From: an uncultured Candidatus Saccharibacteria bacterium
GTDB lineage: Bacteria; Patescibacteriota; Minisyncoccia; Phycocordibacterales; Phycocordibacteraceae
Direction: 5' to 3'
NCBI GenBank assembly: GCA_964652615.1
Contig: CAZZAT010000001.1
Coordinates: 284,337 to 348,336 of the forward strand
DNA length: 64,000 bases
Positions 10,641 through 47,589 of this stretch are shown here, piece after piece. The notes under the pieces are model-generated. The model ran no database searches, was not told the DNA's origin, and was given only the letters and a program-made list of their open reading frames with translations. Made by a program: the position numbers and the translations under genes. Each line of letters begins with the position of its first letter. Position 1 is the first letter of the stretch.

Positions 10641-12258
10641 CCGAGAGGAGTACCGCGCCGACTAAAAATACAAACAGTACAGCAAATACGAGTTGTTCTC
10701 TATACGGCTGCAGAACACACGCAAGATACCCGAGAAGCGCGCACAAGGCGGCAAGATGCACAAGATAGGGCACGGCAAAAAAGAGCGGCGTTAAAAGGAA
10801 GGCGAGCGCGACAAGAACGCCCATAGAACGGAACGCTGCCTTTGTTCCAAAGCGTTTTTGTATAACCGTTGCAAGTGTTGCAATACCCTGCGAAGCATCA
10901 CCTTCAAGATCTTTCAGGTCTTTAAAGTTTGCAAAGAGCGTGTAGAAGAGCACGATGCCAAATACTAAAGAGACGGGGAAGATGCCGCTTTCTTTAAAGG
11001 GAATGGTATGGAAGAACCCTGCACACACTGCGGAAAGTGCAGCGAGGCCGATAATAAAGGAAGAAAAGAGGGGAACACGCTTTAACCGAAGCGGAGATGC
11101 AGAGTACGCATAGTATGCGGCCGTGAATGAAAGGAGAAAGAAGAAGGAGTAGTAGCCTGATACCCAACCAGCAAGAAGCATGAGAAGAAATGCACATAGA
11201 GCCGCACTATGCATCTGGCTTCTGGTAAGTGTCCGCACTACCAAAGGACGCTCTTTGTTTGATACCGCATCAATTGCTTCGTCTTCAAGATCGTTTATTA
11301 CGACCGCATAGTAGCAGGCGGCACACCAAGCAACGGCGAGTGTAGTGAGCGTAAGCAGGTCAGCCCACCCGTACGCATACCCGCCGCTCATGAAGTAGCC
11401 AAGCAAAGCGCCGATACCAACAAGCATAAGTGCGTGCAGTACGCGAAGCGGGCGGAAGTTTCGGATATGCGCTCGTAGTGTGGGCGCACTATGGCAATAC
11501 GCAATAACAAGGCCGAGCACGGTTGCTATAAGCGTAAAGCATGCGGCCATAAGCGCATTGAACCCTGTTTCTATAGTGATAAGTGTTGATGCGGGTACGA
11601 GTGTTGCAGGTAGCGTGTTTCTTAGAAGCCCCGAGGAGTAAAAAGCGTCCTGTAGAAAAGCGAAGACACTGCCGCCAGACACATAGGTGCCAGAAAGTGC
11701 GTAGAGGACGCTTGGAAAGGAGCCGAATATAAAGACGGTCACATAGACTGCAGCACCTGCTACAAGAGCGCGCAGTATGTTTTTTGTGCGCAAGAAAATA
11801 TACACGGCAAAAAGCAGTGTTGCGAAAAAGAGCGTAATACGAACCCCAAGCGTGGCTCCTGTGTCAGAGAGAAAATCGAAAAAAGAAAAGAAGATGCGTA
11901 GAAGTTCCGGAGGAGAGACAATAAGATACACCAAGGAAGCGCCTTGGCCTCCCGTGGCAATAACATCGAATGTTGGAGGTATAAGAAGTACAAGAAGGCC
12001 AAAAAGGGCGACAGGAAGAGCTTTTGCGTAGTCGCGCAAAGCGGTTCCGAGAATGCACACAAACGCAAAGAAGAGTGCGAGGAAGTACGCGCTGTAGTGG
12101 ACAAGCGTCCAAGGGTCAACAGGGAAGAGACCGTTGCCACTCGGACTTGAAAAACCCTCAAGCAGTATGCGAAGTGCGACAATAGAAAGGAATGCGCCGA
12201 TAAGGCCTGCTGCAGTCAGACGTGTTGTTTCGAGGGCGTGTAAAAAGCGCTCCACCAT
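10627..12258 (-). CDS. UbiA-family prenyltransferase with a long N-terminal polytopic membrane extension
   Basis: C-terminal half carries UbiA Asp-rich motifs VINDLEDEAID and KDLKDLEGD. Start placed at the internal ATG 12258 to avoid a 300-nt overlap with ksgA. Confidence 0.6.
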   Translation of the reverse strand: MVERFLHALETTRLTAAGLIGAFLSIVALRILLEGFSSPSGNGLFPVDPWTLVHYSAYFLALFFAFVCILGTALRDYAKALPVALFGLLVLLIPPTFDVIATGGQGASLVYLIVSPPELLRIFFSFFDFLSDTGATLGVRITLFFATLLFAVYIFLRTKNILRALVAGAAVYVTVFIFGSFPSVLYALSGTYVSGGSVFAFLQDAFYSSGLLRNTLPATLVPASTLITIETGFNALMAACFTLIATVLGLVIAYCHSAPTLRAHIRNFRPLRVLHALMLVGIGALLGYFMSGGYAYGWADLLTLTTLAVAWCAACYYAVVINDLEDEAIDAVSNKERPLVVRTLTRSQMHSAALCAFLLMLLAGWVSGYYSFFFLLSFTAAYYAYSASPLRLKRVPLFSSFIIGLAALSAVCAGFFHTIPFKESGIFPVSLVFGIVLFYTLFANFKDLKDLEGDASQGIATLATVIQKRFGTKAAFRSMGVLVALAFLLTPLFFAVPYLVHLAALCALLGYLACVLQPYREQLVFAVLFVFLVGAVLLSVIAK

Positions 12259-12292
12259 AACATCTGCAGTATAGCGTGTTAGGATTGCGGCG

Positions 12293-13063
12293 ATGCGCGC
12301 TAAGAAAACACTCGGCCAGCACTTTTTGATGCATGCGCAAACCGCAAACCGTATTGTGCAGGCGGCTCCTCTTGAAGAAGGCGATACTGTCCTTGAAATA
12401 GGGCCCGGAAGAGGCATCCTGACGCGCGCCCTGCTTTCTCGTGCAAAGCGCGTTATTGCAGTTGAGGCTGATGCGGACCTTATTCCTCTGCTTGAAGAAA
12501 CCTTTAAAGAAGAGCAGGGCCTCACTCTCATACACCAAGATATCCGTGCGTTTAACCCTTCAACGATAGAAGGGGAGTATGCCGTAGTCGCCAATATTCC
12601 GTACTACATCACGGGAGAAATCATCCGCAGCTTCCTTTCAGCAAGCCATAAGCCGCGCTCCCTTACGCTTCTCGTACAAAAAGAGGTGGCGGTGCGCATT
12701 GCACGCGCAAAGAAAGAGAGTCTTCTTTCGCTCTCGGTAAAAGCATACGGGACGCCCCACTATACATTTACCGTACCTAAAGGAGCTTTCAAGCCGGCTC
12801 CCTCGGTTGATTCGGCTGTCTTGACCATACGCGACGTACAAAAAGATGCTTTTGCCTCAAAAAAGGAAGAGGAAGACTTCTTCAGCCTCCTCCACGCAGG
12901 ATTTGCACACAAACGAAAGCTCCTTGTGGGGAATCTTTCCGTACTTGCACCAAAAGAACGTGTGCTTGAAGCCTTTACAGAGGCTCATGTTGCAGAAAAA
13001 GCGCGTGCAGAGGATGTTCCACTTTCTTCGTGGCGGGTACTTGCAAAAAACCTAGGAAAATAA
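12293..13063 (+). CDS. rsmA: 16S rRNA (adenine1518/1519-N6)-dimethyltransferase
   Basis: KKTLGQHFL..., SAM-binding VLEIGPGRGILT, NIPYYIT motif. Confidence 0.9.
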   Translation: MRAKKTLGQHFLMHAQTANRIVQAAPLEEGDTVLEIGPGRGILTRALLSRAKRVIAVEADADLIPLLEETFKEEQGLTLIHQDIRAFNPSTIEGEYAVVANIPYYITGEIIRSFLSASHKPRSLTLLVQKEVAVRIARAKKESLLSLSVKAYGTPHYTFTVPKGAFKPAPSVDSAVLTIRDVQKDAFASKKEEEDFFSLLHAGFAHKRKLLVGNLSVLAPKERVLEAFTEAHVAEKARAEDVPLSSWRVLAKNLGK

Positions 13064-13110: not shown

Positions 13111-14043
13111 TTGACGAGCATGGCTGTTTCTACCAAAACAACAAGCATTCTCCTTTCCATCGTCATAGCGGCGGGTCTTATGGGAGTCGCCTTCTATTTC
13201 TCGGGAGCACGGCCAAACGTAGCTGATGCTGTTTCAACCGAAGAGCTTCTTCGCGCCTACGCAGAGAAAGACAGTGACAGCGACCTTCTTCCTGACTGGC
13301 AAGAAGCCCTTTATGGTTCAGACCCCCTAAACCCACGCTCGATAGACTCGTCCATGACCGATGGGGAAGCGGTTGCCGCAGGACGAGCTACGGTTTCTCT
13401 GCGTGAGGAAGTTTCACCAGAGCTTCCCGATATTCCAGGAGTTGAGGTGGAAGCAGATACCGTTACTGGTGCTTTTGGCCGCAAGCTCTTTACAGACTAC
13501 TTCGAAGCGCGCGGACAAAATCAACCCACAAGCGACGATATCATTGCGTTTGTAACGTCCGCTGCAGACACGCTCGCTATAGAAAACGACACGAGAGCCC
13601 GTTACAGCTCAAAAGACCTCACTATCGTGCAAGATAACAGCCAAGAAGCTTTGAAGGCATACGCTGCACGAGTAGCGTCTAGTGTCGTACGCCCATCAAT
13701 TGATGCGCCCCAAAACGAACTCTTCTACTTCTACGACTATGTGGCACTCAAAGATGAAGCTGCACTTCCTAAAGTCGCCGCGCTTGGAAAGTCCTACAAA
13801 GAAACTGCCGCTGCATATATGCGCATTCCTGTTCCTGCAATTGCCGCAGCTCCCCATCTCGAACTAGTGAACGCTCTCTATCGCACAGGAGAAGCGACTG
13901 AATACATGGCAGCTGTGAAAACCGATCCGCTTCTTGCGTTTCTCGGTATTGCACAGTACCAAACGGCAAGCGCCGCACTCCATGAAGCGCTCAAAAAATC
14001 CGTTGCTGTGTTTGTGGCAACGTTTCCTGCACAAACACCATGA
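13111..14043 (+). CDS. Membrane-anchored hypothetical protein, first gene of the T4SS-like operon
   Basis: N-terminal TM helix; no known domain; translationally coupled (ATGA overlap) to the next gene. Confidence 0.45.
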   Translation: MTSMAVSTKTTSILLSIVIAAGLMGVAFYFSGARPNVADAVSTEELLRAYAEKDSDSDLLPDWQEALYGSDPLNPRSIDSSMTDGEAVAAGRATVSLREEVSPELPDIPGVEVEADTVTGAFGRKLFTDYFEARGQNQPTSDDIIAFVTSAADTLAIENDTRARYSSKDLTIVQDNSQEALKAYAARVASSVVRPSIDAPQNELFYFYDYVALKDEAALPKVAALGKSYKETAAAYMRIPVPAIAAAPHLELVNALYRTGEATEYMAAVKTDPLLAFLGIAQYQTASAALHEALKKSVAVFVATFPAQTP

Positions 14044-15542
14044 GTACTTTCTCCTTCCGCACCATTCTCTCACTACTCCTTATAGGAGTGCTTTTCACGC
14101 CCGTAGCTCCTGCTAAAGCGCAATGGGTAACTTGGGACCCAGGAAACAACATTGCAAACTTCGGAGACTGGATCACTAATATATTTTCAAGTGTTTCTGA
14201 AGAGTCCACTGCCGTCACCTCTGCCCTTACTGAAGGTTCTACCGGTTCGCTCTTCACCAAGGAATACATTCTTGACCAGATAGCCTTCATTCTTGCAAAA
14301 GAAGCACTGCAGTCTGTTATCGACGAGGTGATTGATTTTTCTGGTTCAGGGTATGACGGAGCTCCGGCATTTGTAACAAACATTCGAAGTCACATGCTCG
14401 CGCTTGGCGACTTGGTTGCCGATGACTTTATAAACCAGTTTTTGTCAGAGGGCATGATTGATTCTCCATTTCGAAATACGATTAGCTCCTCGCTTCGAGG
14501 TGAATACTATCGCTCAACCGGACCTAACGCATACTTTAATGTAAATCGTTACACTCTTGACCAATTTTCGGATGATCCTGAAGCATTCTTGCGCGGTGAT
14601 TTCGGAAGAGGAGGTATTGAGGCTTGGATACAAACGTGGAGGAACCCGCAAAACAATCCGTTTGGCGCGTATGAGCGAGCAAATAGCGAGCTTTCGCGTC
14701 GCATTATTTCTGCGCAAACCGACCGCTCGTCAGAGCTTGATAGAAACAGCGGCTTCCTAAACTACTGTGAAGATCCTCCTGCAGATGCTTCAGAGGGGGA
14801 AGAAACTGCAGAAACAGAGGGAGAGGCAACGAGCCTTCAAGCGCCCGCTACAGGTGGGGGGCCTAAATGCCAAACCAAGACGCTTGGTTCAACACTTAAT
14901 GCTGCCCTTGAGAAGTCTATTGGTGCTCCTATCGATCAGTACGTGGAAGCTGATGAGTTGAATGAAGTGATGACTGCGCTTGTACAGGCACTTGTTACTT
15001 CCGTTTTCGAGGAAGGTATTACCGGTCTTGCAGAAGGAGAGGGGACGAGAAACAGGCCGGTTGGGGGCGCAACGGACATCATCAATACCATGCTTGGCCG
15101 TGCGCGCGATATCCGTGGCAAGATCGTGCAATACCAAGCAGACTGGCAGAAAATTGGTGCAAAAGCGCAAGAGGCTTCACAGCGCTGCCCTACAGATCCT
15201 CTCGTGCAGAGCACAGTATCAAAAGCGGCGGCGGCGGCGGTGAAGGTGGTCGATGCGCTTCCTGCGCTTGATGCAGTTATTCAAAAACTCCTCACACTTC
15301 AGAGTGGGGAAGTACTAAGCGATGAACTTCAGGAAGTGACTACTGAATACAACAGTCTTTCCAGTTCAGGTCGCCTACCTACCCCAGCAGAGCTAAGCGA
15401 AGCGAAGCTCGGTGCAGTCGATACTCCGCCACCTAACCCAGAGGTCGACCTTAGAGGACAAGTCACTGGCTCTTTGTATGACCAGATGGAAAACGCTGTT
15501 ACAACTGGTGTTTGCCCTACACCACCACCAACGACAACGTAG
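14040..15542 (+). CDS. Secreted hypothetical protein (signal peptide), T4SS-like operon
   Basis: Signal peptide LLLIGVLFTPVAPAKAQ; 500 aa; no recognisable catalytic motif. Confidence 0.5.
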   Translation: MSTFSFRTILSLLLIGVLFTPVAPAKAQWVTWDPGNNIANFGDWITNIFSSVSEESTAVTSALTEGSTGSLFTKEYILDQIAFILAKEALQSVIDEVIDFSGSGYDGAPAFVTNIRSHMLALGDLVADDFINQFLSEGMIDSPFRNTISSSLRGEYYRSTGPNAYFNVNRYTLDQFSDDPEAFLRGDFGRGGIEAWIQTWRNPQNNPFGAYERANSELSRRIISAQTDRSSELDRNSGFLNYCEDPPADASEGEETAETEGEATSLQAPATGGGPKCQTKTLGSTLNAALEKSIGAPIDQYVEADELNEVMTALVQALVTSVFEEGITGLAEGEGTRNRPVGGATDIINTMLGRARDIRGKIVQYQADWQKIGAKAQEASQRCPTDPLVQSTVSKAAAAAVKVVDALPALDAVIQKLLTLQSGEVLSDELQEVTTEYNSLSSSGRLPTPAELSEAKLGAVDTPPPNPEVDLRGQVTGSLYDQMENAVTTGVCPTPPPTTT

Positions 15543-15548
15543 CGCTAT

Positions 15549-18011
15549 ATGAAAAGCCTTCGTTTCGCACTATCCATGAGTCCGAAAGCTCTTATAGCGC
15601 ATAGTGTATTTTTCTCTTTGTTTGCATCTCTAGCATTCTTTGGCTTTAGTACACCCGCGTACGCAAGCTGCGGATTTGGAGATCTAGTTTGTGGCATTAT
15701 GAGCGGCGCTGGGAAGCTCTTCGCCACTTTTATCTTCGTGGTGGTACAGATTTTCGGTGTTCTTCTCGGCTGGATAAGTGCATTTTTTAACACTGCAGCC
15801 ATTGTTACCGTCTTCCAGTTTTCAAATTACTTCGGAAACTCCGAAGGACTCTTGCTTGCGTGGGGAATACTGCGCGACCTTGCAAATATCGTGATTCTCT
15901 TCGGCTTTGTCTTCATCGGCATCGGCACTATTTTGAATATTGGAAACTTCAGCGCAAAGAAAGCTCTCCCTTCTCTCCTTATTTTCGCGGTTCTTCTTAA
16001 CTTCAGCCTATTCGCCACCGAAGCAGTCATAGATGCATCAAATGCGATCGGATCATCATTCTTCGCGCAAGCAGGAGGAGTTGATTGCACCCTTAGCGCA
16101 AGCATCACGCAGTGTTCTGGACAGGGTATTGCAGGACATCTTTTGAGTGCTGTAGGTATCTCAAGCATCTTTGATCCTGACTCGTGGGGAGACGGCATTG
16201 GAGAAATAATGAACGCAGACGACGGTATTGCTGCGGCTGTACTCTATCTTGGTATTTTGATCCTCATTATCGTCATGTGTGCCATCATGTTTGCTGGTGC
16301 AATTATTCTCATTACCCGCGCGATTACACTAATGCTCCTCATGGTTACGTCTCCGCTTGGATTTGCGGGCATGGCCATTCCAGGACTCCAGAAACTAGGC
16401 AAGAAATGGTGGGACACGCTTCTTCAGAATGTTATCTTCGCACCTATCTTCGTCCTACTTATCCTTGTAGGACTTAAGGTCGCAGAGGGAATACGTACAG
16501 GACTTGTAGGGAACAGTTTTAGTATCACCGAAAAGCTTTCGGGGTCCGATCCTGTAGGTATAGGTACTGTCTTTGTTATGTTCGCACTTGTTATAGGTCT
16601 CTTTTGGGGAGCGCTTATGTTCGCAAAGCAGTCGGGCATCATTGGTGCAAGTGCAGTTGCAAGCGGTGCGATGAAATGGGCGGGGAATACAGCTGGTTCG
16701 TTCACCACTACACCTATTGGTATGGGTGCAAGAGCTCTGGAGAAGGGGTACGGAGGCGCAGCTCGAGCCGTACGTCGAGCAACACCATCTTTCGCACGCC
16801 CTGTACTTGCCGCACTCGGAGGTAACGCCATAGACAGTGGTATACGAGGCGCACTCGGTTCAGCACAAAAAGTCACTATACCTGGAACTGGTATGGATAC
16901 GTATGAGACGAGCCGTAAGCGCCGAGAAGACAGGTTCAAAGGAATGAACGAAGGAGACTCTCTTGACAAAAAGAAGGAACGTCTGAATAAAGCACTCGAG
17001 AGCGGTAATAAAGACGATATAAAAGCGGCTGTATCAAGTATGAGTGTTTCCCAACTCAAAGAGGGGGGCTACTTAGACGATGACAAAAAATCTAAAACTA
17101 TTGCAACTGCACTCGGAGCTCCAAAATTCAAGGAACTCATGGAGGATACGACTATCTCTAGTGGCATTAAAGATCGCATGAAGAAGGAGCGGTACGACAC
17201 TCTTGAAACAGCGGCTGATGCTGCTGTCCGCGATGCTAGAGCTGGGAATTTCGATACTATCGAGAAGTTCATGAAGGACACTGACGTTATTGATTTGAAA
17301 GAAATGAAGCACCTTAAAGACTCCGGTCGTGGAGCAGAACTTGAACTTATGGCTGGAGCTATGTCATCAACCAAATTCAAACAGTTTAACGAGGATAAAG
17401 AGGTTGATAGCGTTACAAAGAAACGCTTCCGCGATGCTCGCTATGAAGGACCAAGAGGTTTGAAGAAACGAATACGGGACGCTGCTGATACTACTAGGTC
17501 TCCAGCTGAAGTTGCTGCGGCTATTGAAGACGTATCGAAGTGGTCTGCAGAAGAATTCGAAACCTCTGGAGCCCTCTCTGATCCGACCCTAAGGGAGCAG
17601 GTTGCCCGTGTGATCTCTGATGACCAATACAAAGCTCTGCAAGCATCAAGCTCCATTGGTACAAGCACAAAGACAACCCTTGAAGGGTTGCGGGAAGATC
17701 CAACTAAAGACGGATCTCGATTCCATGCTCGGCATATCGATCACACGTTTAATAAAATTATTACGCGTCCGAGTGAGCGCGCCAAACTCCCAGGCAATAT
17801 TCTGGCTTCGTTGCAGGTAAGAAGTCGCTTGAAGCCAGCTGACTTTGTAGCTGTACAAAAAGCAGGTCGACTTGAAGAAGGAGATCGGCAACTTCTGGCC
17901 ACACGAGTTCAGGCGCTTGTTCGTGTTAATGACCCTGTCATGCTTGCACAAATTGGAAGACTTAAGGGTCGTGAACTTGCTCGATTTAAGGATTTCTATA
18001 ATCTTCCATGA
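15549..18011 (+). CDS. TrbL/VirB6-like polytopic membrane protein with a long charged C-terminal domain
   Basis: About 8 TM helices in the first ~400 aa, then a ~400-aa K/E/D-rich soluble domain; positioned next to PrgI/VirB4 genes. Confidence 0.45.
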   Translation: MKSLRFALSMSPKALIAHSVFFSLFASLAFFGFSTPAYASCGFGDLVCGIMSGAGKLFATFIFVVVQIFGVLLGWISAFFNTAAIVTVFQFSNYFGNSEGLLLAWGILRDLANIVILFGFVFIGIGTILNIGNFSAKKALPSLLIFAVLLNFSLFATEAVIDASNAIGSSFFAQAGGVDCTLSASITQCSGQGIAGHLLSAVGISSIFDPDSWGDGIGEIMNADDGIAAAVLYLGILILIIVMCAIMFAGAIILITRAITLMLLMVTSPLGFAGMAIPGLQKLGKKWWDTLLQNVIFAPIFVLLILVGLKVAEGIRTGLVGNSFSITEKLSGSDPVGIGTVFVMFALVIGLFWGALMFAKQSGIIGASAVASGAMKWAGNTAGSFTTTPIGMGARALEKGYGGAARAVRRATPSFARPVLAALGGNAIDSGIRGALGSAQKVTIPGTGMDTYETSRKRREDRFKGMNEGDSLDKKKERLNKALESGNKDDIKAAVSSMSVSQLKEGGYLDDDKKSKTIATALGAPKFKELMEDTTISSGIKDRMKKERYDTLETAADAAVRDARAGNFDTIEKFMKDTDVIDLKEMKHLKDSGRGAELELMAGAMSSTKFKQFNEDKEVDSVTKKRFRDARYEGPRGLKKRIRDAADTTRSPAEVAAAIEDVSKWSAEEFETSGALSDPTLREQVARVISDDQYKALQASSSIGTSTKTTLEGLREDPTKDGSRFHARHIDHTFNKIITRPSERAKLPGNILASLQVRSRLKPADFVAVQKAGRLEEGDRQLLATRVQALVRVNDPVMLAQIGRLKGRELARFKDFYNLP

Positions 18012-18778
18012 TCTTTTCTGAACAGCAAATCGAAGATGCTTTGAATGCAGCCCCTCAAGCGATACGGGACGTGCTTGAGGATGGTACACTTGACACATCT
18101 GTAGCGAAATCCTGCCAAGAACAAGGTCTCCATGTCGACCAAATTGGCGCTGTCGCTTTACACTCGCAAAATATACTCATAGGACTGCTGAAACCTTCAG
18201 AGTTTATATTCGAACTTGAATCAAGTGGAATCCCTAAGCCTGTAGCAAATGCCATTCTTCAAGACTTAAACGAACAGGTATTTAAACCATTGAACGAGAA
18301 AATACGGGCTGAAAAGGAAAGTGGGGAAGAAACACCAGAAGAGCCTGTAGAACCTACCCGCACGCCAGAAAAACCTGCGCCACCTCCACCCCCACGTATC
18401 GAAATAGCCGTACAGGAACCACCTCCTGTTCCTGTTATAGCTCCTCAAGTTCAAGCTCCTGTTGCTACGCCTCCTGCACCCACGCCAACTCCTCCACCTG
18501 TAGCACCAATGCCTCCAGCACCTACACCTCCTCCAACCCCTGCACCAGAGCCGCCTGCACCTCCAGCAACTCCGCAAATGCGCACCATGGCGCATGATGT
18601 CGAAGCGCTCAAAGATGGAAAGATGCCTGAACCACAGCGTCCTGCCCCACCTACACCGCAAACTCCTGCACAAGCACCGGTCACACATGAAGCAGCGCAA
18701 GATATGCCAAGCCATCAAGAAGTAACTGAATCTTTGAAGCAGTACGGTGTTGACCCCTATCGAGAACCCGTAGAATAG
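18008..18778 (+). CDS. Proline-rich protein (PPAPTP repeats), T4SS-like operon
   Basis: Start overlaps the previous stop; central (P-x)n low-complexity region. Confidence 0.4.
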   Translation: MIFSEQQIEDALNAAPQAIRDVLEDGTLDTSVAKSCQEQGLHVDQIGAVALHSQNILIGLLKPSEFIFELESSGIPKPVANAILQDLNEQVFKPLNEKIRAEKESGEETPEEPVEPTRTPEKPAPPPPPRIEIAVQEPPPVPVIAPQVQAPVATPPAPTPTPPPVAPMPPAPTPPPTPAPEPPAPPATPQMRTMAHDVEALKDGKMPEPQRPAPPTPQTPAQAPVTHEAAQDMPSHQEVTESLKQYGVDPYREPVE

Positions 18779-18817
18779 CGGATAGCTCGCTTCAAGAGCT
18801 TGGTATACTAGTTTGTA

Positions 18818-19243
18818 ATGGAGTACCAAGTTCCTCAATTTATCGAGGTTGAAGATAAGATTTTTGGACCGCTTACCTTAAAGCAGTTCATCTATCTTGC
18901 TGGAGGCGCAGGTCTCTGCGTCGTGCTTCTGCTCTACCTTCCATTTTTCTTTGGCGTACTGCTTGCAATACCGGTAGCCGCTCTCTCTCTTGCGCTTGCG
19001 TTCTATAAGATTAACGGGAAGTCGTTCGTTGAAATGATGGAATACGGCTTTAACTATCTTATAGGGAAGCGCCTGTATCTCTGGAAAAAGGTTAAGGAAC
19101 CGGTTGTGCCGGCAGCAACGCCCGCAGAAACACTAGGAGGAGCCCCCGCCATAGCTCCGAAAGAGGGGTTGTCTCGAAGAAAGCTTGAAGACCTTGCGTG
19201 GGCACTTGATGTAAAGACTGACCGCGACCAAACCATTACGTAG
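18818..19243 (+). CDS. PrgI/VirB3-like small membrane protein
   Basis: MEYQVPQFIEVEDKIFGPLTLKQFIYLAGG followed by two TM helices; immediately precedes VirB4. Confidence 0.5.
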   Translation: MEYQVPQFIEVEDKIFGPLTLKQFIYLAGGAGLCVVLLLYLPFFFGVLLAIPVAALSLALAFYKINGKSFVEMMEYGFNYLIGKRLYLWKKVKEPVVPAATPAETLGGAPAIAPKEGLSRRKLEDLAWALDVKTDRDQTIT

Positions 19244-19247
19244 CCCT

Positions 19248-19883
19248 ATGCCCGAAGCAAACCCAACACAAGCATTCGTTCCCGTAAAAGAAGTCCGTAA
19301 TGGCATTATCATCCTGAAAGACGGAGGGTACCGTGGCGTGCTTATGTGCTCCTCATTAAACTTCGCCCTAAAATCAGAAGATGAGCAGCGCGCCATCATT
19401 GGAGGCTTCCAGAACTTCCTTAATACGCTCGATTTCTCGGTTGAGATAGTGGTGCAGTCTCGCCGCATGGATATACGCCCCTATCTTGCGTTCCTTGAAA
19501 CACTAGAGCCGACCCAGAAGACTGACCTTATGAAGATACAGCTGCGCGAGTACATTCAATTCATTAAGAACTTCATTGAAGGCTCCGACATCATGACGAA
19601 GCTCTTCTACGTCATCGTGCCATTTAACGCAGCCCCAGGAACAGAAGTCGCAAGCGCTCTGCCGTTTCTCCAAAAGAAACCAGAGAAAGCCACTGCAGGA
19701 CTCTCTGGCTCTTTTGAAGAGCATCGTATTCAGCTTGAGCAGCGCATGGGACTCGTGTCTTCCAGCCTTATGTCAACAGGATTACGGGCGGTACCGCTTG
19801 GAACCGAGGAGGTGATAGAGCTTTTGTACCGCTCGTTCAATTCGGGGGATATAGGAGGTCCGATACAACTTACTGAAAAATAA
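19248..19883 (+). CDS. VirB4-like protein, N-terminal domain fragment (split gene)
   Basis: Ends 1 nt before the VirB4 ATPase ORF, in a different frame; the two ORFs together make about 819 aa, the length of a normal VirB4; junction lies at an A5 homopolymer. Confidence 0.5.
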   Translation: MPEANPTQAFVPVKEVRNGIIILKDGGYRGVLMCSSLNFALKSEDEQRAIIGGFQNFLNTLDFSVEIVVQSRRMDIRPYLAFLETLEPTQKTDLMKIQLREYIQFIKNFIEGSDIMTKLFYVIVPFNAAPGTEVASALPFLQKKPEKATAGLSGSFEEHRIQLEQRMGLVSSSLMSTGLRAVPLGTEEVIELLYRSFNSGDIGGPIQLTEK

Positions 19884-19884
19884 T

Positions 19885-21711
19885 ATGGCTCTTCTTGATT
19901 TTCTAAACAAAAAGCATAAGGATGCACAAGCTTCTACGGTCGTTGCGCCGGTGCTTCCGCAGGATATCTATGCGGAAGGAGCGCTCTCTCTTGCGGACAC
20001 CATCGCTCCCGCAGCTTTGAAGGTAAGCGCTAAAGAAATCACGCTTGGCGAGAAGATGTCGCGTACCTTCTATACCATCTCCTACCCGCGCTACCTTACT
20101 GACAGCTGGTTTACGCCGGTTGTAAATATGCCGCAGGTTTTTGATGCATCTATTTTCATTCATCCAGTAGATACAGCACAGGCGCTCCGAGGCTTCCAAC
20201 GAAAGGTAGCCGAGGTACAAAGCCAGATTTCGGAGCGTGCAGAGAAGGGGCTTGTGCGTGATCCGATGCTTGATACTGCCTACCAAGACCTTGAGGCGCT
20301 ACGCGATAACCTCCAACAGGCACAGGAGCGGCTCTTTGATGTAGGCCTCTACCTCACCATATACGGCGACTCGAAGGAGCATCTCGATAAGATTGAAGCG
20401 GAGGTGCGCGGCATACTCGACTCAAGGCTTATCTACACGAAACCTGCTCTCTTTCAGCAGGAACAGGGTTTTCGTTCAACGCTTCCGCTTGCAAACGATG
20501 AACTTGCCGTACATTCGAAGTTAAACTCTTCTCCTCTTTCATCAATCTTCCCATTCGTTTCCTTCGACCTTACAAGTGACAAGGGTATTCTCTTTGGTGT
20601 TAACCGCCACAACGCCTCTCTCATTCTCTTCGACAGGTTTTCACTTGAAAACTACAATTCAGTCGTGTTTGCAAAGTCTGGTTCCGGTAAGTCCTATGCG
20701 GTGAAGCTTGAGATTCTCCGCTCGCTTATGTTTGGAACGGACGTGATTGTTATCGACCCTGAACGCGAGTATGAGTACTTAGCAGAAGCTACCGGCGGAC
20801 GCCTCTTCAACATCTCGCTCTCTTCAGAACACCACATCAATCCGTTTGACCTTCCGCCGGTCAAAGAAGACGAGACGCCTTCTGACATTCTTCGCTCAAA
20901 CATCATTAATCTCGTAGGTCTCTTCCGCATCATGCTTGGCGGCCTTACTCCTGAAGAAGACGCCATTGTCGACAGGGCGATAACCGAGACCTATGCTTTG
21001 AAGGACATAACGGGGGATAGAGACTTTAGCGGTATCGAAGCGCCTCTCTTGTCTGACTTTGAGAACGTACTTTCGGGCATGGCAGGGTCCGAGTCTCTCG
21101 TCGCGCGGCTTTCAAAATACACCCGCGGTACGTGGGCAGGCTTTATGAACCAACCGACAAACGTCGACATCGGGAAGCAATTCATCGTCTTCTCGGTGCG
21201 CGATATGGAAGACGAGTTGAAACCGGTTGCTATGTACATCGTCACGCACTACATATGGAATGCGGTGCGGCGCGATTTGAAAAAGCGCATTCTTGTTATC
21301 GACGAGGCGTGGTGGATGATGAAGTCGGAAGATACTGCTTCCTTCCTCTACAGCCTCGCCAAGCGCGGCCGCAAATACTACCTTGGCGTCTCAACCATAA
21401 CGCAAGACGTTGAAGACTTCCTGAAGAGTCCGTACGGAAAACCTATTCTCACAAACTCCTCAATACAGCTTCTCTTGAAGCAATCGCCCACAACTATCGA
21501 CCTCTTGAAGGACATCTTCAATCTTACTGAAGAAGAGAAGTTCCTTCTTTTGGAGTCTGGGGTGGGAGAGGGCTTGTTCTTTGCGGGCTTGAAGCACGTT
21601 GCCATAAAGATAGTGGCTTCCTATACCGAAGACCAGATTATTACGTCAGATCCATCCCAGCTCCTTGCTATTAAGCGGGAAAAACAACGCCTTGAAATGG
21701 CGAAGGAATAG
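19885..21711 (+). CDS. VirB4/TrbE-family type IV secretion ATPase (C-terminal part)
   Basis: Walker A VVFAKSGSGKSY, Walker B ILVIDEAWWMM, VIDPEREY, TQDVEDF. Confidence 0.8.
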   Translation: MALLDFLNKKHKDAQASTVVAPVLPQDIYAEGALSLADTIAPAALKVSAKEITLGEKMSRTFYTISYPRYLTDSWFTPVVNMPQVFDASIFIHPVDTAQALRGFQRKVAEVQSQISERAEKGLVRDPMLDTAYQDLEALRDNLQQAQERLFDVGLYLTIYGDSKEHLDKIEAEVRGILDSRLIYTKPALFQQEQGFRSTLPLANDELAVHSKLNSSPLSSIFPFVSFDLTSDKGILFGVNRHNASLILFDRFSLENYNSVVFAKSGSGKSYAVKLEILRSLMFGTDVIVIDPEREYEYLAEATGGRLFNISLSSEHHINPFDLPPVKEDETPSDILRSNIINLVGLFRIMLGGLTPEEDAIVDRAITETYALKDITGDRDFSGIEAPLLSDFENVLSGMAGSESLVARLSKYTRGTWAGFMNQPTNVDIGKQFIVFSVRDMEDELKPVAMYIVTHYIWNAVRRDLKKRILVIDEAWWMMKSEDTASFLYSLAKRGRKYYLGVSTITQDVEDFLKSPYGKPILTNSSIQLLLKQSPTTIDLLKDIFNLTEEEKFLLLESGVGEGLFFAGLKHVAIKIVASYTEDQIITSDPSQLLAIKREKQRLEMAKE

Positions 21712-21714
21712 GCA

Positions 21715-22341
21715 ATGGCACAGCTTCCAAGCGTACAGCAGGTCGTAAGTGTTTCTCGAGCAGTACAGAAATCTGACCTCGGAAGAGTTTTGGATGAAGA
21801 GGGTAAACGCATAAAAAACCAAGGAGCTGCAGCACTTATTACCGTGGCTCTCTTGGCTGACTTAGTCCAGTCGCTACAGCTTATTCCTGGCCTTGGTTTC
21901 CTCTTTATTGCGCCCGCCATAGCCGCAGTCGTCTTCGGGTATGTCTTTATTATCATCGCCCTTAAGTTTTTCTTTGACGGCATAGAGCTTATTGGCGGCC
22001 AGTACACCATGATGAAGGGTGGGGCGCTTATCGTGTCCGCTCTTGTTGAGTTCGTCCCGTTTATTAGCGCCTTTCCTGCTATAACTCCTGGCGTTGTGGC
22101 CATCATAATTGCAACGCGCCTTGAGGATATTGGTAAGGAACGTCTCATACCTACCACTAAAGAGGTGGTAGGCAGAGCCTTTCAAAGCAAGCGTGGACGT
22201 CAAAGAACTGATGAGTTGTATCGGGCTAGATTCCAACGTTCAGTAAACGAGGTTGCAGACGACTTTTACGAAAAACTGCAAGAGGAGGAAGAGCGGCAGG
22301 CTCTCAAAGAGGAGCAGAAACGCAAGGTGCGTGCCTTTTAG
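21715..22341 (+). CDS. Membrane protein, unknown function, T4SS-like operon
   Basis: Three or four TM helices then a charged coiled-coil tail. Confidence 0.4.
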   Translation: MAQLPSVQQVVSVSRAVQKSDLGRVLDEEGKRIKNQGAAALITVALLADLVQSLQLIPGLGFLFIAPAIAAVVFGYVFIIIALKFFFDGIELIGGQYTMMKGGALIVSALVEFVPFISAFPAITPGVVAIIIATRLEDIGKERLIPTTKEVVGRAFQSKRGRQRTDELYRARFQRSVNEVADDFYEKLQEEEERQALKEEQKRKVRAF

Positions 22342-23351
22342 TGCCCACAGCGCATCTTCGCCACACACTAAGACGCGCTATACTTCTTGTGATGCTTCGC
22401 GCTCTTCTACTTCTCGTCTTTATTGCTATACCTGTGTCTGTATCGGCACAGTTCTCTCCTGATGCAAAACCACTTCGGATTAGTATCTCCCCTGAATATC
22501 CGCGTCCCTATGACCAAGTGACGGTCTCGCTTGAGAGCAACCTTATTAACCTCTCTGCAGCAGATCTCGTTATATCCGTAAATGGAGCAGTTATTGAAGA
22601 GGGATCAAAGACAGCTACCTTTAAGGCGGGAGGTCCTGGAACGAGATCGGTCATCCGTGCATCTGCAACAACTCCTGCAAGCACCGAATCAGCTGAAAAG
22701 ACGATAGTTCCTGCTGAAATAGCGCTTGTTATTGAACCATCGGGAACTTCGCATCCTTTCTATGACGGCGGTCTTTTAGTGCCAAGCGAAGGCCGCCTTC
22801 GCATCATTGCGCTTGGCGATCTTCGAAGCACGCCGGGAACACGCCTTTCTGAAGCTGATGTGAGCTATACCTGGAAAGTGGGGGATAGGAACCTATCCGA
22901 GGAGTCCGGTTTTGGAAAGAACGTCCTTACCGCAATAGCTCCCACTCGCTATCGCGATACCCAAGTGACCGTAACTGCAACAAGTCGCGACAGAACCGTT
23001 GTTGCACGTTCATCAATATCTGTGTCTCCCGTGGACCCGATAGTACGTTTCTATAGCGATGACCCGCTTTCTGGAACAAACTTTGCTGCTGCCATTACCG
23101 ATGCCTTTTCGTTTAGCGGCAGTGAGGCTGGCTTCCGCATTGTTCCGTTCTATTTCAAGGAGACCCCTTCGTTCTCCTGGAGACTAAACGGAACAGAAAG
23201 TGGTACCCAAGACACCATCACAGTGCGTTCAAGCGGAGGTTCTGGGTCAGCAGTACTTTCTGCTGATGCTATGCTTGGAACCATACGAGCAAGCGAATCA
23301 TTTAACCTTCGCTTTGAAACAGCGCGCCAAGGCGGCTTCTTCGGATTCTAA
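22341..23351 (+). CDS. Secreted hypothetical protein, T4SS-like operon
   Basis: GTG start overlapping the upstream stop; signal peptide ...IAIPVSVSAQ; beta-rich composition. Confidence 0.45.
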   Translation: MPTAHLRHTLRRAILLVMLRALLLLVFIAIPVSVSAQFSPDAKPLRISISPEYPRPYDQVTVSLESNLINLSAADLVISVNGAVIEEGSKTATFKAGGPGTRSVIRASATTPASTESAEKTIVPAEIALVIEPSGTSHPFYDGGLLVPSEGRLRIIALGDLRSTPGTRLSEADVSYTWKVGDRNLSEESGFGKNVLTAIAPTRYRDTQVTVTATSRDRTVVARSSISVSPVDPIVRFYSDDPLSGTNFAAAITDAFSFSGSEAGFRIVPFYFKETPSFSWRLNGTESGTQDTITVRSSGGSGSAVLSADAMLGTIRASESFNLRFETARQGGFFGF

Positions 23352-23353
23352 CC

Positions 23354-24388
23354 ATGAATTTCCTCACCAAAACCCTTCTTGCAGCCGGCGCTCTTGCGCT
23401 TCTTAGCTCTCCCACGCTTCTATTTGCACAAGAAACGGTCGTCTTTACTCCTCTAACCGGCCTTCCAGGACTGACTGATGTAAGCAGCGCGGACGCAATA
23501 GGAGACTTCCTAAACGTCATTTATCGACTCTGTGTAGGTATCGCTGCAACGCTTGCGGTACTGAAGATAATTCAGGCAGGTGTTATGTACATGCGAAGCG
23601 ACAGTATTACCGGACATAAGGAAGCGCGCGACATTATAAAAACATCTTTGCTTGGATTGGTGCTTGTTCTTTCTCCAGCTATTGTCTTCGGCCTCATTGA
23701 TCCTCGTATTTTGAGTCTCTCCCTAAACACAACACCGCTTCAGCTTTCGGAACTTGCGCCACAAAATCCTTCTGGTGGGTTAAACGCTGCCCAAAGGCAA
23801 GTCATAGTTAATGAGGTTGTCGCTGCTGCGCAGGCTTGTGGTGTGCAGGCAACCGAGCAACAGGGGAGATGTTTTCTTGACAGTATGCCTGATACGGAAC
23901 GAACACGCGCTTGTATCCCTGGCATCACCGATGCACAGTTTCAGTGTATGGGAGAAGGAATAATTGAGGCAGGAGAGAGAATGCAAGCTGAAGAAAATCG
24001 CTGCCAAGCAGTAGCACCTATCACTGAAGGTAAAATGGTCTCTGAACAGTATCAAAACTGCTGCGCGCTTGCTGGTTTTCAAGCGGTTCGCTATGGATTC
24101 CGCAACGTAAACTATATGTGCACTAACTCTCCTCCAGAACAAGAAACTTCTCCGATAAATGCCGCCGAAGGAACTTACAATTTTGTGCTCTATGCGCTTT
24201 CTTCAGATGAAACATGTGTTCAACTTGTGCACGGTTCATACCCAGATCAAAGTACATGCACCGCACGGCTTGCCGAAGAACAAAATAGTCGACCTCAATA
24301 CACACCACTCTATTCTTGTGTTATTCCGCCGCTAAATACTTCTTTGTTTAATAAGCCTGTGTGTTCGAACATAACTACTGCAAACTAA
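23354..24388 (+). CDS. VirB2/TrbC-like pilin domain fused to a Cys-rich C-terminal domain
   Basis: Signal peptide, then two hydrophobic helices (...IYRLCVGIAATLAVLKIIQAGV..., ...SLLGLVLVLSPAIVFGLI) typical of T4SS pilins, then ~200 aa with 12 Cys. Confidence 0.45.
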   Translation: MNFLTKTLLAAGALALLSSPTLLFAQETVVFTPLTGLPGLTDVSSADAIGDFLNVIYRLCVGIAATLAVLKIIQAGVMYMRSDSITGHKEARDIIKTSLLGLVLVLSPAIVFGLIDPRILSLSLNTTPLQLSELAPQNPSGGLNAAQRQVIVNEVVAAAQACGVQATEQQGRCFLDSMPDTERTRACIPGITDAQFQCMGEGIIEAGERMQAEENRCQAVAPITEGKMVSEQYQNCCALAGFQAVRYGFRNVNYMCTNSPPEQETSPINAAEGTYNFVLYALSSDETCVQLVHGSYPDQSTCTARLAEEQNSRPQYTPLYSCVIPPLNTSLFNKPVCSNITTAN

Positions 24389-24389
24389 T

Positions 24390-25631
24390 ATGCGGCGCGT
24401 CTTCCTTATCATCCTCGCAATCATAGTTCTGATAGGTCTTGCGCTTGGCATCTATATGCTTTTCTTCTCTGCAAAAGCCCCTGACTTTACTGCAAACCCT
24501 GGATCTTTTGGTACGGGAGGAGAGTATGTTCCAGGAGAGTTCGGAGAGCCCGGAGAAGGAGAAGTGGGAGAAACTGAAACTGAAGCAGGAGAGGAAGTCG
24601 CGCCACGACTTGTAAAGATAACAGACGGTCCAGTTGCGTTTGGTTCAGTTGCTTTCACTACTGAAGAAGTAGTTGAAGGAGAAACAGTTGGCTCAACCAC
24701 TGCAAGTTCTACAGTGGTGTATGACACGGAAGTGCGCTATGTGGAGCGGTTAAGTGGAAACGTGTACGGCTACAAAGCACACGAGCGTACATTAACGAGA
24801 ATCTCAAACCGCACGCTTCCTGGCGTCTATGAAGCATCATGGCTTTCTGATGGTTCCACTGTATATGCGCGCTTCCTTACAGAAAGTGGTGCTGGAGATG
24901 AAGTGCTTGAAACCTATGCGCTTCCCGTACAGGAAGGGGAGGGTGGCTATTTCCTTGAGCCAAACATAGCGGAAGTTGCTGTGCGCGGAACAACGACAGT
25001 AGCAACACTTCTTCCAAGCTCAAGTGGCTCTCTTGCAAGCGCGTCTTCTGCAGATGGCGCAACGGTACGTACACTCTTTACTTCTTCTCTTTCAGCACTC
25101 CAGCTTCTTGCTTCGAATGTAGGGTACGCAGCGTACACAAACGCTTCAGCGCAGTCAGGAGGGTACGGGTTTTTGATAAGTGAGACCGGTGTATTTGAGC
25201 GTTTGGTTGGCCCGCTACGCGGCCTTACGCTTCTCCCAAGTCCTTCGGGTTCCTATGTGTTTTATACCTACCTTTCTGGAAGCACACTTCGTTCCGAACT
25301 TCTTGAAACCACATCTCGCGTCTCTACAACCATTCCTCTTGGCGCCCTTTCAGAAAAATGTGTCTGGGCTCCTGATGAATCAAGCATCTATTGTGCTGTG
25401 CCACGTTCGGTTTCAGGCACGCTTCCTGATGACTGGTACCAAGGTGTTGTTTCTTTCTCGGACCGCATATGGAAAGTCGATCTTGGCGCACGAGTGGCTG
25501 TTCTTGTTGTAGATCCACTAAACGCAGGGGGAGTGGCTATTGATGCCGTGAATCTTGCGATAGATCCGCGTGAAGATACGCTTGTATTTACAAACAAGAA
25601 GGATGATTCTCTTTGGGCGTACGACCTTTAG
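24390..25631 (+). CDS. Membrane-anchored hypothetical protein, Gly/Glu-rich linker plus probable beta-propeller-like domain
   Basis: N-terminal TM; GEFGEPGEGEVGE linker; last gene of the operon, convergent with yidC. Confidence 0.45.
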   Translation: MRRVFLIILAIIVLIGLALGIYMLFFSAKAPDFTANPGSFGTGGEYVPGEFGEPGEGEVGETETEAGEEVAPRLVKITDGPVAFGSVAFTTEEVVEGETVGSTTASSTVVYDTEVRYVERLSGNVYGYKAHERTLTRISNRTLPGVYEASWLSDGSTVYARFLTESGAGDEVLETYALPVQEGEGGYFLEPNIAEVAVRGTTTVATLLPSSSGSLASASSADGATVRTLFTSSLSALQLLASNVGYAAYTNASAQSGGYGFLISETGVFERLVGPLRGLTLLPSPSGSYVFYTYLSGSTLRSELLETTSRVSTTIPLGALSEKCVWAPDESSIYCAVPRSVSGTLPDDWYQGVVSFSDRIWKVDLGARVAVLVVDPLNAGGVAIDAVNLAIDPREDTLVFTNKKDDSLWAYDL

Positions 25632-26940: not shown

Positions 26941-28287
26941 ATGAACCGCTCTGATCCACACGAGCTTTGGGAGCACCTTCTTTCGCAGGTAGAACTTTCT
27001 ATTTCAAGCGCAAACTTCAATACCTGGTTTCGCGAGAGTCACATTGTAAAAATAGAGGAGGGAATCGTATATATAGGCGTTCCAAGCCAGTTTTTTAGAG
27101 ATTGGTACCAGAAAAAATTCCATCAACTTCTCCTTAAGATACTGCGTGCTGTTTCATATGAGTACCGGAATATCGAGTACGTCATCGTTAAAGATGCAAG
27201 AAAGCCTCGTACCGAAAAGAAAAGGGAGCAAAACAACCAAGAACTACCGCTCGATGAGTTTTACATTAATAAGAGCGACAATCTAAACCCTCGCTATACG
27301 TTCGAAACGTTTGTTATTGGTTCCTTTAACGATCTTGCGGTAAAAGCCGCTGAAGCTGCCATCAGGCGGCCTGGTATTACCTATAACCCGCTCTTTATTT
27401 ATGGAGAAACTGGCCGTGGTAAGACGCACCTTATTCAAGCTATAGGCAATCAGTACAAGAAACTCTACCCCGCACGCAAAGTCTATTACTTAACGTCTGA
27501 AAAGTTTGCTGTTGAATACACCGATGCGATGCAGCAGGGAACAGGGAATCGCTTTAAGGAAAAGTACCGTCAGTACGATCTCCTTATCATTGATGATGTG
27601 CAGTTCTTCTCAAAGAAAGATAAGACGCAAGAAGAACTCTTCCACCTCTTCAATGCGCTTCATGACAATAACCGTCAGATTATTTTCTCAAGCGACAGAC
27701 CACCACAAGCTATTCCTGATATAGCAGACAGGCTGCGCGGTCGGTTCCTTTCAGGTATGACAGTTGATATTTCTGAACCTGACGTTGAGTCGCGTGTAGC
27801 TATTGTTCGTAAAAAAGCAGCGCTTCATGGAGTGCTTCTTGGAGATGAGGTGGTTGAATATATCGCAACGAACGTTTCAGGTTCTATTAGAGAGCTTGAG
27901 GGGGTTATTAATAGTCTTGTCTGCCATGCGCAGGTAAAAGGCTCTGCTCCTGATATTGCTGAAGTGCGGCAGTCGCTTCGCTCATTCTCCAGACCTACAA
28001 AGACTGTTTCTGTAAAGAATGTAGTGTCTAAAGTTGCCGAGTTTTACGGTATCGATGAAGAGAGTATTTATGAAAAGACACGAAGAAGGGAGGTGGTACG
28101 ACCGCGCCAAGTCATTATGTATCTTCTTCGAGAAGACTTTTCTGTGTCCTATCCAACTATCGGTACCAAGCTCGGCGGACGCGATCACACTACCGTCATT
28201 CACTCGTGTGAGAAGGTGAAGCGGGAAGTGGTTGATGATGCAGAACTTGCAAAAGAAATACAGGATATTCGCGGGCTGTTAGTATAA
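26941..28287 (+). CDS. dnaA: Chromosomal replication initiator protein DnaA
   Basis: AAA+ motifs GETGRGKTHL, LLIIDDVQF; C-terminal DNA-binding helix ...YPTIGTKLGGRDHTTV. Confidence 0.95.
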   Translation: MNRSDPHELWEHLLSQVELSISSANFNTWFRESHIVKIEEGIVYIGVPSQFFRDWYQKKFHQLLLKILRAVSYEYRNIEYVIVKDARKPRTEKKREQNNQELPLDEFYINKSDNLNPRYTFETFVIGSFNDLAVKAAEAAIRRPGITYNPLFIYGETGRGKTHLIQAIGNQYKKLYPARKVYYLTSEKFAVEYTDAMQQGTGNRFKEKYRQYDLLIIDDVQFFSKKDKTQEELFHLFNALHDNNRQIIFSSDRPPQAIPDIADRLRGRFLSGMTVDISEPDVESRVAIVRKKAALHGVLLGDEVVEYIATNVSGSIRELEGVINSLVCHAQVKGSAPDIAEVRQSLRSFSRPTKTVSVKNVVSKVAEFYGIDEESIYEKTRRREVVRPRQVIMYLLREDFSVSYPTIGTKLGGRDHTTVIHSCEKVKREVVDDAELAKEIQDIRGLLV

Positions 28288-44424: not shown

Positions 44425-44430
44425 CTCGTG

Positions 44431-44503
44431 TCCGCCCGCCAGGGCTCGAACCTGGGACCGTCTCCTTAAAAGGGAGCTGCTCTACCAACTGAGCTACGGG
44501 CGG
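44431..44503 (-). tRNA. tRNA-Lys (anticodon UUU)
   Basis: Manual cloverleaf fold: acceptor CCGCCCG/CGGGCGG, D-arm GCTCAGTTGGTAGAGC, anticodon loop CTTTTAA, T-arm CCAGGTTCGAGCCCTGG. Confidence 0.8.
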
Positions 44504-44538
44504 ATGCTCTACAACGTAGCACTTTGTGCGTGTTGTTT

Positions 44539-45468: not shown

Positions 45469-45475
45469 GTACTTT

Positions 45476-46732: not shown

Positions 46733-46738
46733 ACCAAA

Positions 46739-47582: not shown

Positions 47583-47589
47583 CGATAGA

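Follow-up and report, generated by a model that had tools for sequence, protein, structure and literature searches.

A cluster of eleven closely spaced genes

A 64-kb stretch of patescibacterial DNA (contig CAZZAT010000001.1 of assembly GCA_964652615.1, positions 284,337 to 348,336), to which we refer as the window, contains a gene cluster that encodes components of a type IV secretion system (T4SS). The region from 13111 to 25631 is filled by 11 co-directional open reading frames (ORFs), which we call g1 to g11 (Table 1). From g1 to g11, the gaps between neighbouring genes are −4, +6, −4, +39, +4, +1, +3, −1, +2 and +1 nt, so that nine of the 10 junctions lie within −4 to +6 nt; the exception is the gap between g4 and g5. 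A preliminary description of this DNA had counted twelve genes. There are 11 in the range which it gave, and twelve are reached if rsmA, located 47 nt upstream, is included. Every junction coordinate listed there was correct, as was the strand of all ORFs. It spoke of four proteins of unknown nature but gave five lengths, and it missed two genes, namely those for the 211-residue TrsD-like protein g6 and the 256-residue proline-rich protein g4.

Two start codons deserve comment. Gene g1 may begin at ATG 13120 instead of TTG 13111. For g9, the start at ATG 22392 is more probable than that at 22341, judged by its fit to the amino termini of the orthologues; the database product of 319 residues matches this start. 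The junction between g8 and g9 would then be +50 nt, without overlap. The stop codons TGA, TAA and TAG are all in use and every ORF is intact, which indicates the standard genetic code. An alternative code with UGA read as glycine was rejected, since ORFs terminate at TGA as well as at TAA and TAG. A consensus scan for promoter- and terminator-like sites within the cluster returned fewer sites than in shuffled sequence, that is, no excess. It is thus from the gene spacing that we infer co-transcription and translational coupling.

Table 1. ORFs of the cluster and their features (coordinates refer to the window).
Gene	Length (aa)	Coordinates	Strand	Features
g1	310	13111–14043	+	N-terminal membrane anchor (residues 12–30), extracytoplasmic part with thrombospondin-type-3 (TSP3) repeat
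g2	500	14040–15542	+	Secreted, mostly alpha-helical, four Cys, signal-like N-terminus
g3	820	15549–18011	+	Extended VirB6/TrbL-like polytopic membrane protein
g4	256	18008–18778	+	Proline-rich, no signal peptide, no transmembrane segment
g5	141	18818–19243	+	PrgI/VirB3 family, two transmembrane segments, membrane partner of VirB4
g6	211	19248–19883	+	TrsD-like, N-terminal domain of VirB4 as separate ORF
g7	608	19885–21711	+	VirB4 ATPase (C-terminal ATPase part), monoderm MPF_FATA/CD1110 type
g8	208	21715–22341	+	Small polytopic membrane protein, 3–4 hydrophobic segments, charged C-terminal tail
g9	336 (319 from ATG 22392)	22341–23351	+	Secreted, three tandem immunoglobulin (Ig)/fibronectin type III (FnIII)-like beta-sandwich domains, no Cys
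g10	344	23354–24388	+	VirB2-type T4SS pilin core plus C-terminal ectodomain
g11	413	24390–25631	+	Membrane anchor, acidic Gly/Glu-rich linker, extracytoplasmic domain of about 330 residues

The VirB4, TrsD and PrgI core

Pfam was searched with a non-overlapping set of all ORFs of at least 80 residues covering the 64 kb, and NCBIfam with the cluster ORFs except g11. For comparison, one genome per species was scanned, which gave 561 relatives; the best 80 of these were analysed (loci L001–L080).

The assignment of g7 as VirB4, already made in the preliminary description, is confirmed by its match to the CD1110 VirB4-like family of NCBIfam (NF045971, 369 bits, cut-off 325). Its best solved relative is the VirB4 protein of Thermoanaerobacter (4AG5, 5e-46), and TrwK of plasmid R388 is also found (1e-8), while no HerA or FtsK chain is among the PDB matches. 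The Pfam family P-loop_TraG is matched with 86 bits. Walker A (AKSGSGKS) and Walker B (ILVIDEAWW) motifs are intact, and g7 is 27% identical to PrgJ over 571 residues. More than 8000 homologues were obtained. The best 120 are 84–100% identical to g7 and come, where a source name is given, from Paceibacterota, Parcubacteria or Patescibacteria. The closest plasmid-encoded VirB4 proteins, from the monoderm Bacillota and Actinomycetota, reach at most 35% identity.

The preceding ORF, g6, supplies the missing amino terminal part. It matches the CD1110 VirB4 model of NCBIfam at positions 4–167, the Mbov_0397 VirB4 model at positions 102–233, and the TrsD/TraD family NF041427. The alignment to PrgJ is colinear, with g6 covering residues 32–205 and g7 residues 215–772. 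This split is kept intact in 78–79 of the 80 related species, which excludes a frameshift error. Upstream of g6, the PrgI/VirB3-like nature proposed for g5 is borne out by a score above the Pfam cut-off (PF12666, 39 bits, cut-off 27, E=1.2e-9). The protein has two hydrophobic segments and is present in 76 of the 80 loci at 43–62% identity.

A VirB6-like membrane protein and a proline-rich protein

The gene directly upstream of a PrgI–VirB4 pair codes for PrgH in pCF10 and for SEML1_0011/0013 in Southlakia; g3 has a corresponding position, separated from g5 by g4 only. It contains eight hydrophobic segments, a signal-like one and about seven transmembrane segments, in a membrane domain of about 380 residues. 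This is followed by a tail of 441 residues which is presumably cytoplasmic; it is 33% charged (18% K+R, 15% D+E) and free of Cys. The window protein has no match of its own in Pfam or NCBIfam, and its profile gave noise matches only against the PDB. Among the positional orthologues, however, eight of 41 match TrbL (PF04610, best 1.9e-7) and one of 41 matches TrbL_4 (9e-7). The TrbL/VirB6-like call of the preliminary description, with eight membrane segments and a charged tail, is thus supported by way of the orthologues.

Protein g4 consists of a conserved N-terminal helical domain of about 105 residues, a variable linker (38% Pro) and, as revealed by the alignment, an invariant C-terminal DPYRE(P) sequence. 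In 53 loci, the sole carrier of the DPYRE motif is the ORF at the g4 position, between the VirB6-like gene and PrgI. A hidden Markov model (HMM) of the g4 family likewise has this ORF as its sole match. For g4, neither Pfam nor the PDB gave a match, and a Pfam scan of the orthologue set revealed no consistent family. Judged from its sequence features, g4 probably serves as an adaptor or tether in the cytoplasm, and its DPYRE(P) end may be a docking peptide.

A decorated pilin and the envelope proteins

The core of g10 has a signal peptide, an FTPL..LPGL motif and two hydrophobic helices (residues ~46–115). Orthologues match PF18895 in 36 of 43 cases (3e-11) and TrbC/VirB2 (PF04956) in 17 of 43 (8e-7), which supports the VirB2/TrbC-like pilin call of the preliminary description. 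The window copy by itself stays below the cut-off of PF18895 (E=2e-3, 18.6 bits, cut-off 26.6); to the pilin-like NCBIfam model Mbov_0395 it matches with 1e-3. The core is followed by a C-terminal ectodomain of 226 residues with 12 Cys. Unlike the conserved pilin core, this part defies alignment between species; it is a candidate host-specificity determinant.

Two flanking genes form a common module with the pilin gene (see below). Structure prediction had been proposed for g2, g9 and g11 in the preliminary description. The AlphaFold model of g9 is all-beta at moderate confidence (mean predicted local distance difference test score, pLDDT, 72.5) and comprises three Ig-like domains. Foldseek against the PDB identified generic neighbours with FnIII/Ig tandems (~1e-7), and the profile search found Hoc at 0.02. 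Probably, g9 is a wall-spanning or surface component. Protein g11 has a hydrophobic segment at residues 4–22. Its profile matches TolB (7mx5) at 3e-4, with 11 more TolB sequences at 0.1–0.4, and Pfam gave nothing significant for the window copy or the orthologue set. From this weak match we tentatively suggest, at low confidence, that the extracytoplasmic domain is probably a TolB-like beta-propeller.

For g2 the prediction was run but the model, computed from an alignment of seven sequences, is poor (pLDDT 46, all-helical) and unusable. Against the PDB, the g2 profile retrieved coiled-coil noise only. The family is large, fast-evolving and lineage-specific (4882 representatives at E<=1e-3), and shows the conserved motifs WINSGF.GSPAF, GDFS.GGW.AWF, NNPYGAY and TPGSVI; a few orthologues carry additional C-terminal discoidin or Ig-like modules. 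The sole Pfam match is a sub-threshold one to DUF4141 (residues 12–60, 4e-5), which was seen in two of 29 orthologues and spans the signal-peptide region. A VirB5/TrbJ-like reading of g2, considered on account of N-terminal motifs, found no support in any search result.

Protein g1 has one hydrophobic segment and a bacterial thrombospondin-type-3 repeat of the calcium-binding-like type (DSDLLPDWQEALYGSDPLNP). TSP3_bac (PF18884) is found in 23 of 37 g1 orthologues (best 2.8e-10), the window copy reaching only 0.039. Its profile matches solely the Bap repeat region in the PDB (2e-3). The slot of g8, between VirB4 and g9, holds an ORF with two to four transmembrane segments in 50 of 73 loci, and in most of the remaining loci g9 follows VirB4 directly with little or no spacer. 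No Pfam family was assigned to g8, even upon scanning the orthologue set. It is a variable accessory component.

Conservation and chromosomal context

On the upstream side, an intein-containing UvrD gene, a gene of the UbiA family and rsmA precede the cluster. On the downstream side follow yidC, which is convergent, the gene for the RNase P protein (rnpA), dnaA, dnaN, and a gene for a class A penicillin-binding protein. Being flanked by yidC-rnpA-dnaA-dnaN, the cluster appears to adjoin the replication origin (oriC).

The best 80 of the 561 relatives bear the labels Paceibacterota, Kaiserbacteria, Nomurabacteria, Taylorbacteria or similar ones. Their common gene order is rsmA-g1-g2-g3-g4-PrgI-TrsD-VirB4-(g8)-g9-g10-g11-yidC-dnaA-dnaN. 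As the same order is found in 80 species-level genomes, the arrangement is not due to chance, and its VirB6-PrgI-TrsD-VirB4 portion is that of Southlakia.

The two halves of the cluster differ in their distribution. Among the 63 loci with enough downstream DNA, HMM searches detected g9 and g11 in all 63 and g10 in 60. Among the 61 loci with enough upstream DNA, g1, g2 and g3 were found in 46–48 (g1 in 46). One clade of Paceibacteria, represented by 13 loci (L015, L016, L020, L021, L024, L028–L033, L035 and L036), carries other genes in place of g1–g4 before PrgI. Four of these loci were inspected (L015, L029, L031 and L036), and each has an ORF of 210–320 residues with five to seven transmembrane segments close upstream of PrgI. 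This is possibly a short VirB6.

Sequence conservation was compared between VirB4 (19885–21711) and the replication genes at 26941–28287 and 28500–29597. For 1485 locus pairs, the median pairwise identity is 75.9% for VirB4, 54.8% for DnaA, 42.1% for YidC and 38.1% for DnaN. VirB4 identity exceeds that of DnaA in 97% of the pairs, while the envelope proteins are about 30% identical. The cluster has neither flanking repeats nor a compositional step. A mobile-element origin was rejected on account of these two results and the fixed synteny. Together with the conservation, they indicate a vertically inherited, strongly constrained chromosomal system.

A XerC/D-like tyrosine recombinase is encoded 10 kb upstream (1687–2595, minus strand). 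It is probably a housekeeping dimer resolvase and not the integrase of an element, as the operon position is fixed across species. Among the nearer neighbours, the UvrD/PcrA-type helicase gene (7614–10640) contains Hint and Intein_splicing domains at about residues 255–623 of its 1008-residue ORF. The UbiA-family ORF (10627–12594, minus strand), in the form listed, shares about 300 nt with rsmA. Its actual start probably lies much further downstream than the TTG, since the Pfam domain spans just residues 396–635. Type IV pilus genes are located at 37954–39624 (minus strand) and 49558–51694 (plus strand); they code for a PilB-type ATPase, which has an MshEN domain, and for PilM followed by two small ORFs. 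These genes represent a second machine of the cell envelope. Eight tRNA genes are dispersed among housekeeping genes (44430–57213), and one small ORF outside the operon matches the homing-endonuclease domain LAGLIDADG_3.

Components absent from the window

Searches for a relaxase, a VirD4/TcpA-type coupling protein, VirB11 and VirB8/9/10 were negative, with Pfam for the 64-kb window and with NCBIfam for g1 to g10. The only P-loop ORFs of more than 400 residues in the window are UvrD, VirB4, DnaA, RuvB and the PilB-type pilus ATPase. The absence of VirD4, relaxase, VirB11 and VirB9/10 noted in the preliminary description thus holds for the window. Its conclusion that a conjugation system is unlikely is supported as well, and agrees with the published relaxase-free system described below.

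Within the operon, no Pfam, NCBIfam or PDB-profile match to a VirB1-type wall hydrolase or a VirB8-like protein was obtained. HMMs of the accessory genes scored below 8 bits against all Prg/Pcf proteins of pCF10, with no likeness to PrgK, PrgL or PrgD. A protein with LysM and M23 peptidase domains is encoded 6 kb upstream of the operon (6313–7428, minus strand) and is a possible wall-hydrolase partner. Proteins of the LysM/M23 kind near virB4 in Paceibacteria were counted as VirB1-like in a 2025 survey (PMC12102498).

Assignment to a described system

The cluster encodes a translocon (g3, g5 and the split g6+g7), one pilin (g10), the envelope proteins g1, g2, g8, g9 and g11, and the cytoplasmic protein g4. 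We are highly confident that it represents the T4SS of the Patescibacteria clade, which is chromosomal, vertically inherited and non-conjugative, here in a genome of Paceibacteria. Publications of the years 2023 to 2025 have already described this system, and public databases contain the same protein sequences.

VirB4 was reported for 2417 of 3035 Patescibacteria genomes and belongs mostly to one clade nested in MPF_FATA (Quinonero-Coronel et al. 2025, PMC12102498). Encoded near virB4 are TrsD, PrgI/VirB3, VirB6 and VirB2-like pilins, with almost no relaxases, and the Paceibacteria locus is close to dnaA, dnaN, ksgA and rnpA (PMC12102498). In Southlakia epibionticum, SEML1_0006–0019 are essential for epibiotic growth as shown by transposon sequencing; that cluster has no recognizable relaxase or coupling protein, and a structure-based table gives the order VirB6-PrgI-(TrsD-like)-VirB4 (Wang et al. 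2023, PMC10633639). The strong conservation of VirB4 in the present loci is consistent with such a requirement. A 2025 review regards such systems as the first T4SS found to be essential, and as potential uptake or pilus conduits (PMC12857230). The proposal of the preliminary description, a non-conjugative device for host interaction, uptake or secretion, is the published view (PMC12102498, PMC10633639, PMC12857230). Its observation is confirmed and its interpretation supported, yet both amount to the rediscovery of a described system.

A proposed mode of action and its alternatives

Taken as a whole, the T4SS identity together with the following mode of action is the best explanation of the locus, and we regard it as likely. 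VirB4, docked on PrgI and VirB6, would extract the membrane pilin and polymerize g10 into a pilus or conduit through the wall. Sec-exported proteins would form or decorate the wall passage, where g1, g2, g9 and g11 would serve in structure or host contact, and the variable Cys-rich ectodomain of g10 would contact the host cell. On the cytoplasmic side, g4 and the tail of g3 could act as partners. The operon, beside oriC, would be co-transcribed and translationally coupled.

As to what is transported, a conduit for the uptake or exchange of host macromolecules, with DNA or nucleotides in the first place, is a possibility towards which we lean tentatively, by analogy. The T4SSs known to do without relaxase, coupling protein and VirB11 import DNA (archaeal Ced, Helicobacter pylori ComB). 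The epibiotic bacteria considered here lack nucleotide synthesis. Furthermore, comEC is dispensable in Southlakia whereas the T4SS is essential (PMC10633639, PMC12857230). A more specific version is speculative and, in our estimate, rather unlikely to hold in full: a pilus-forming importer of Paceibacteria in which the g10 ectodomain sets host specificity, the DPYRE end of g4 docks to VirB4 or the VirB6 tail, and host DNA, nucleotides or other macromolecules are supplied. If true, it would account for a VirB4 ATPase evolving more slowly than DnaA.

Several points weigh against the explanation as a whole. The Paceibacteria systems are known from genes alone, without a pilus ever having been observed. 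A family assignment is lacking for six of the 11 proteins, and the window copies of VirB6 and the pilin are below the Pfam thresholds by themselves. A pilin with a C-terminal domain of 226 residues may not polymerize like VirB2. Most Patescibacteria genomes have VirD4-like genes at other places, so that the absence of a coupling protein applies to this window only. The match to CedB is far below the cut-off (42 versus 700 bits), so that the analogy to uptake systems is one of composition and not of homology.

The same machine could also work in the opposite direction and export effector proteins into or onto the host, with the VirB6 tail and g4 replacing the coupling protein as receptor or adaptor. 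We consider this direction somewhat improbable. The substrates of T4SSs typically bear C-terminal signals; the charged 441-residue tail of g3 and the invariant C-terminal DPYRE of g4 would fit such a scheme, but DPYRE occurs in one protein per locus only and is thus not a general secretion signal. Effector systems without a type IV coupling protein (T4CP) do exist (Ptl, Brucella VirB). However, the known exporters of this kind load Sec-exported substrates in the periplasm and have VirB11, and neither applies here. Effector-like genes are not visible in the operon. It was nevertheless suggested for Southlakia that the system ‘may instead export proteins’ (Wang et al., PMC10633639). Adhesion alone, with VirB4, VirB3 and VirB6 assembling g10 filaments for host attachment and transporting nothing, is improbable. 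The T4SS components required for pilus biogenesis, VirB2, VirB3, VirB4 and VirB6, are present, and a hypervariable Cys-rich pilin ectodomain is as expected of a host-recognition surface. Yet genes for type IV pili, with a PilB-like ATPase and PilM, are present in the window too, and it is type IV pili that have been shown to be the adhesion organelle in Saccharibacteria (PMC12857230), where they are also essential. The higher conservation of VirB4 relative to DnaA is likewise hard to explain for the motor of a pure adhesin.

The remaining alternatives concern the identity of the cluster. A conjugative system or integrated conjugative element, with its relaxase and coupling protein encoded outside the window, is close to refuted, even though g7 belongs to a VirB4 family of monoderm conjugative elements and VirD4-like or coupling-protein homologues are found, far from virB4, in most Patescibacteria genomes (PMC12102498). 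The operon has no relaxase, T4CP or integrase beside it, lacks flanking repeats, and occupies the identical chromosomal position next to dnaA in 80 species. Only 109 relaxases were found in the 3035 genomes, and the T4CP of Southlakia is not essential (PMC12102498). In addition, the closest homologue of 99.3% of the patescibacterial VirB4 proteins is in the same class, indicating that inter-class transfer is rare (PMC12102498). That the locus might not be a T4SS at all but an operon of a HerA/FtsK-type ATPase with unrelated membrane proteins, an alternative named in the preliminary description, is refuted. It could draw on a Pfam match of g7 to DUF87, the HerA central domain (residues 261–325, 34 bits), but this match comprises 65 residues in the P-loop region only, whereas g7 as a whole passes the CD1110 VirB4 cut-off and matches solved VirB4 proteins exclusively. 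PrgI, TrsD, a VirB6-like protein and a VirB2-type pilin are all encoded adjacent to it.

Significance of the locus

Patescibacteria account for a large part of the diversity of bacteria, and all of their cultivated members live on other cells. The T4SS is one of the few machines kept by nearly all of them, and is essential in Saccharibacteria. The window adds no new system but provides a clean example from Paceibacteria, which is complete and in which the limits of all 11 genes are defined. Beyond this delimitation, the additions are modest: the Ig-like fold of g9, the hypervariable decorated pilin, the DPYRE-tailed g4, the universality of g9-g10-g11 as compared with the less universal g1–g4, and a VirB4 which evolves more slowly than DnaA. 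The decorated pilin, the DPYRE-tailed protein and the universal envelope module g9-g10-g11 offer handles for experiments and structure modelling.

Comparison with known systems

Ptl of Bordetella and VirB of Brucella, like the window system, function without VirD4, but they are diderm systems of the MPF_T type with VirB11 and VirB7–10, and load their substrates in the periplasm. The archaeal Ced/Ted systems and ComB of H. pylori share with the window an ATPase resembling VirB4, a VirB6-like membrane protein and small proteins of the VirB2 kind; a relaxase, a coupling protein and VirB11 are absent from them as well. The models of Ced show no specific homology (CedB NF041017, 41.7 bits, cut-off 700; CedD NF053655, 18 bits, cut-off 600), and ComB carries VirB7–10 for an outer membrane.

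With the monoderm MPF_FATA systems such as Prg/Pcf of pCF10, the common features are a VirB4 of the CD1110 family, the order VirB6-VirB3-VirB4 as in PrgH-PrgI-PrgJ, and the lack of VirB7/9/10; the Trs system of pGO1/pSK41 shares the separate TrsD ORF, as in pGO1. The window differs from MPF_FATA systems in having no relaxase, T4CP, PrgK-type hydrolase, VirB8-like PrgL/PrgD or LPXTG adhesins. Conversely, it has a VirB2-type pilin, which is absent from those systems, and is chromosomal and vertically inherited.

The closest counterpart is the T4SS of the Patescibacteria clade as represented by SEML1_0005–0019 of Southlakia. The window operon has no lysozyme-like VirB1 analogue or NTF2/VirB8-like gene, and its one pilin gene, in place of the array of six short pilins in Saccharibacteria, codes for a protein whose ectodomain is large and variable. 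The accessory genes g1, g2, g4, g8, g9 and g11 are lineage-specific and are not discussed in the two studies of this system (PMC12102498, PMC10633639). Shared with it are the VirB4 of the MPF_FATA type, the TrsD-like ORF, PrgI/VirB3, a probable VirB6 of extended form, a VirB2-type pilin, the absence of a relaxase and a T4CP nearby, and the chromosomal location beside dnaA, dnaN and ksgA. The order VirB6-PrgI-TrsD-VirB4 is identical in both.

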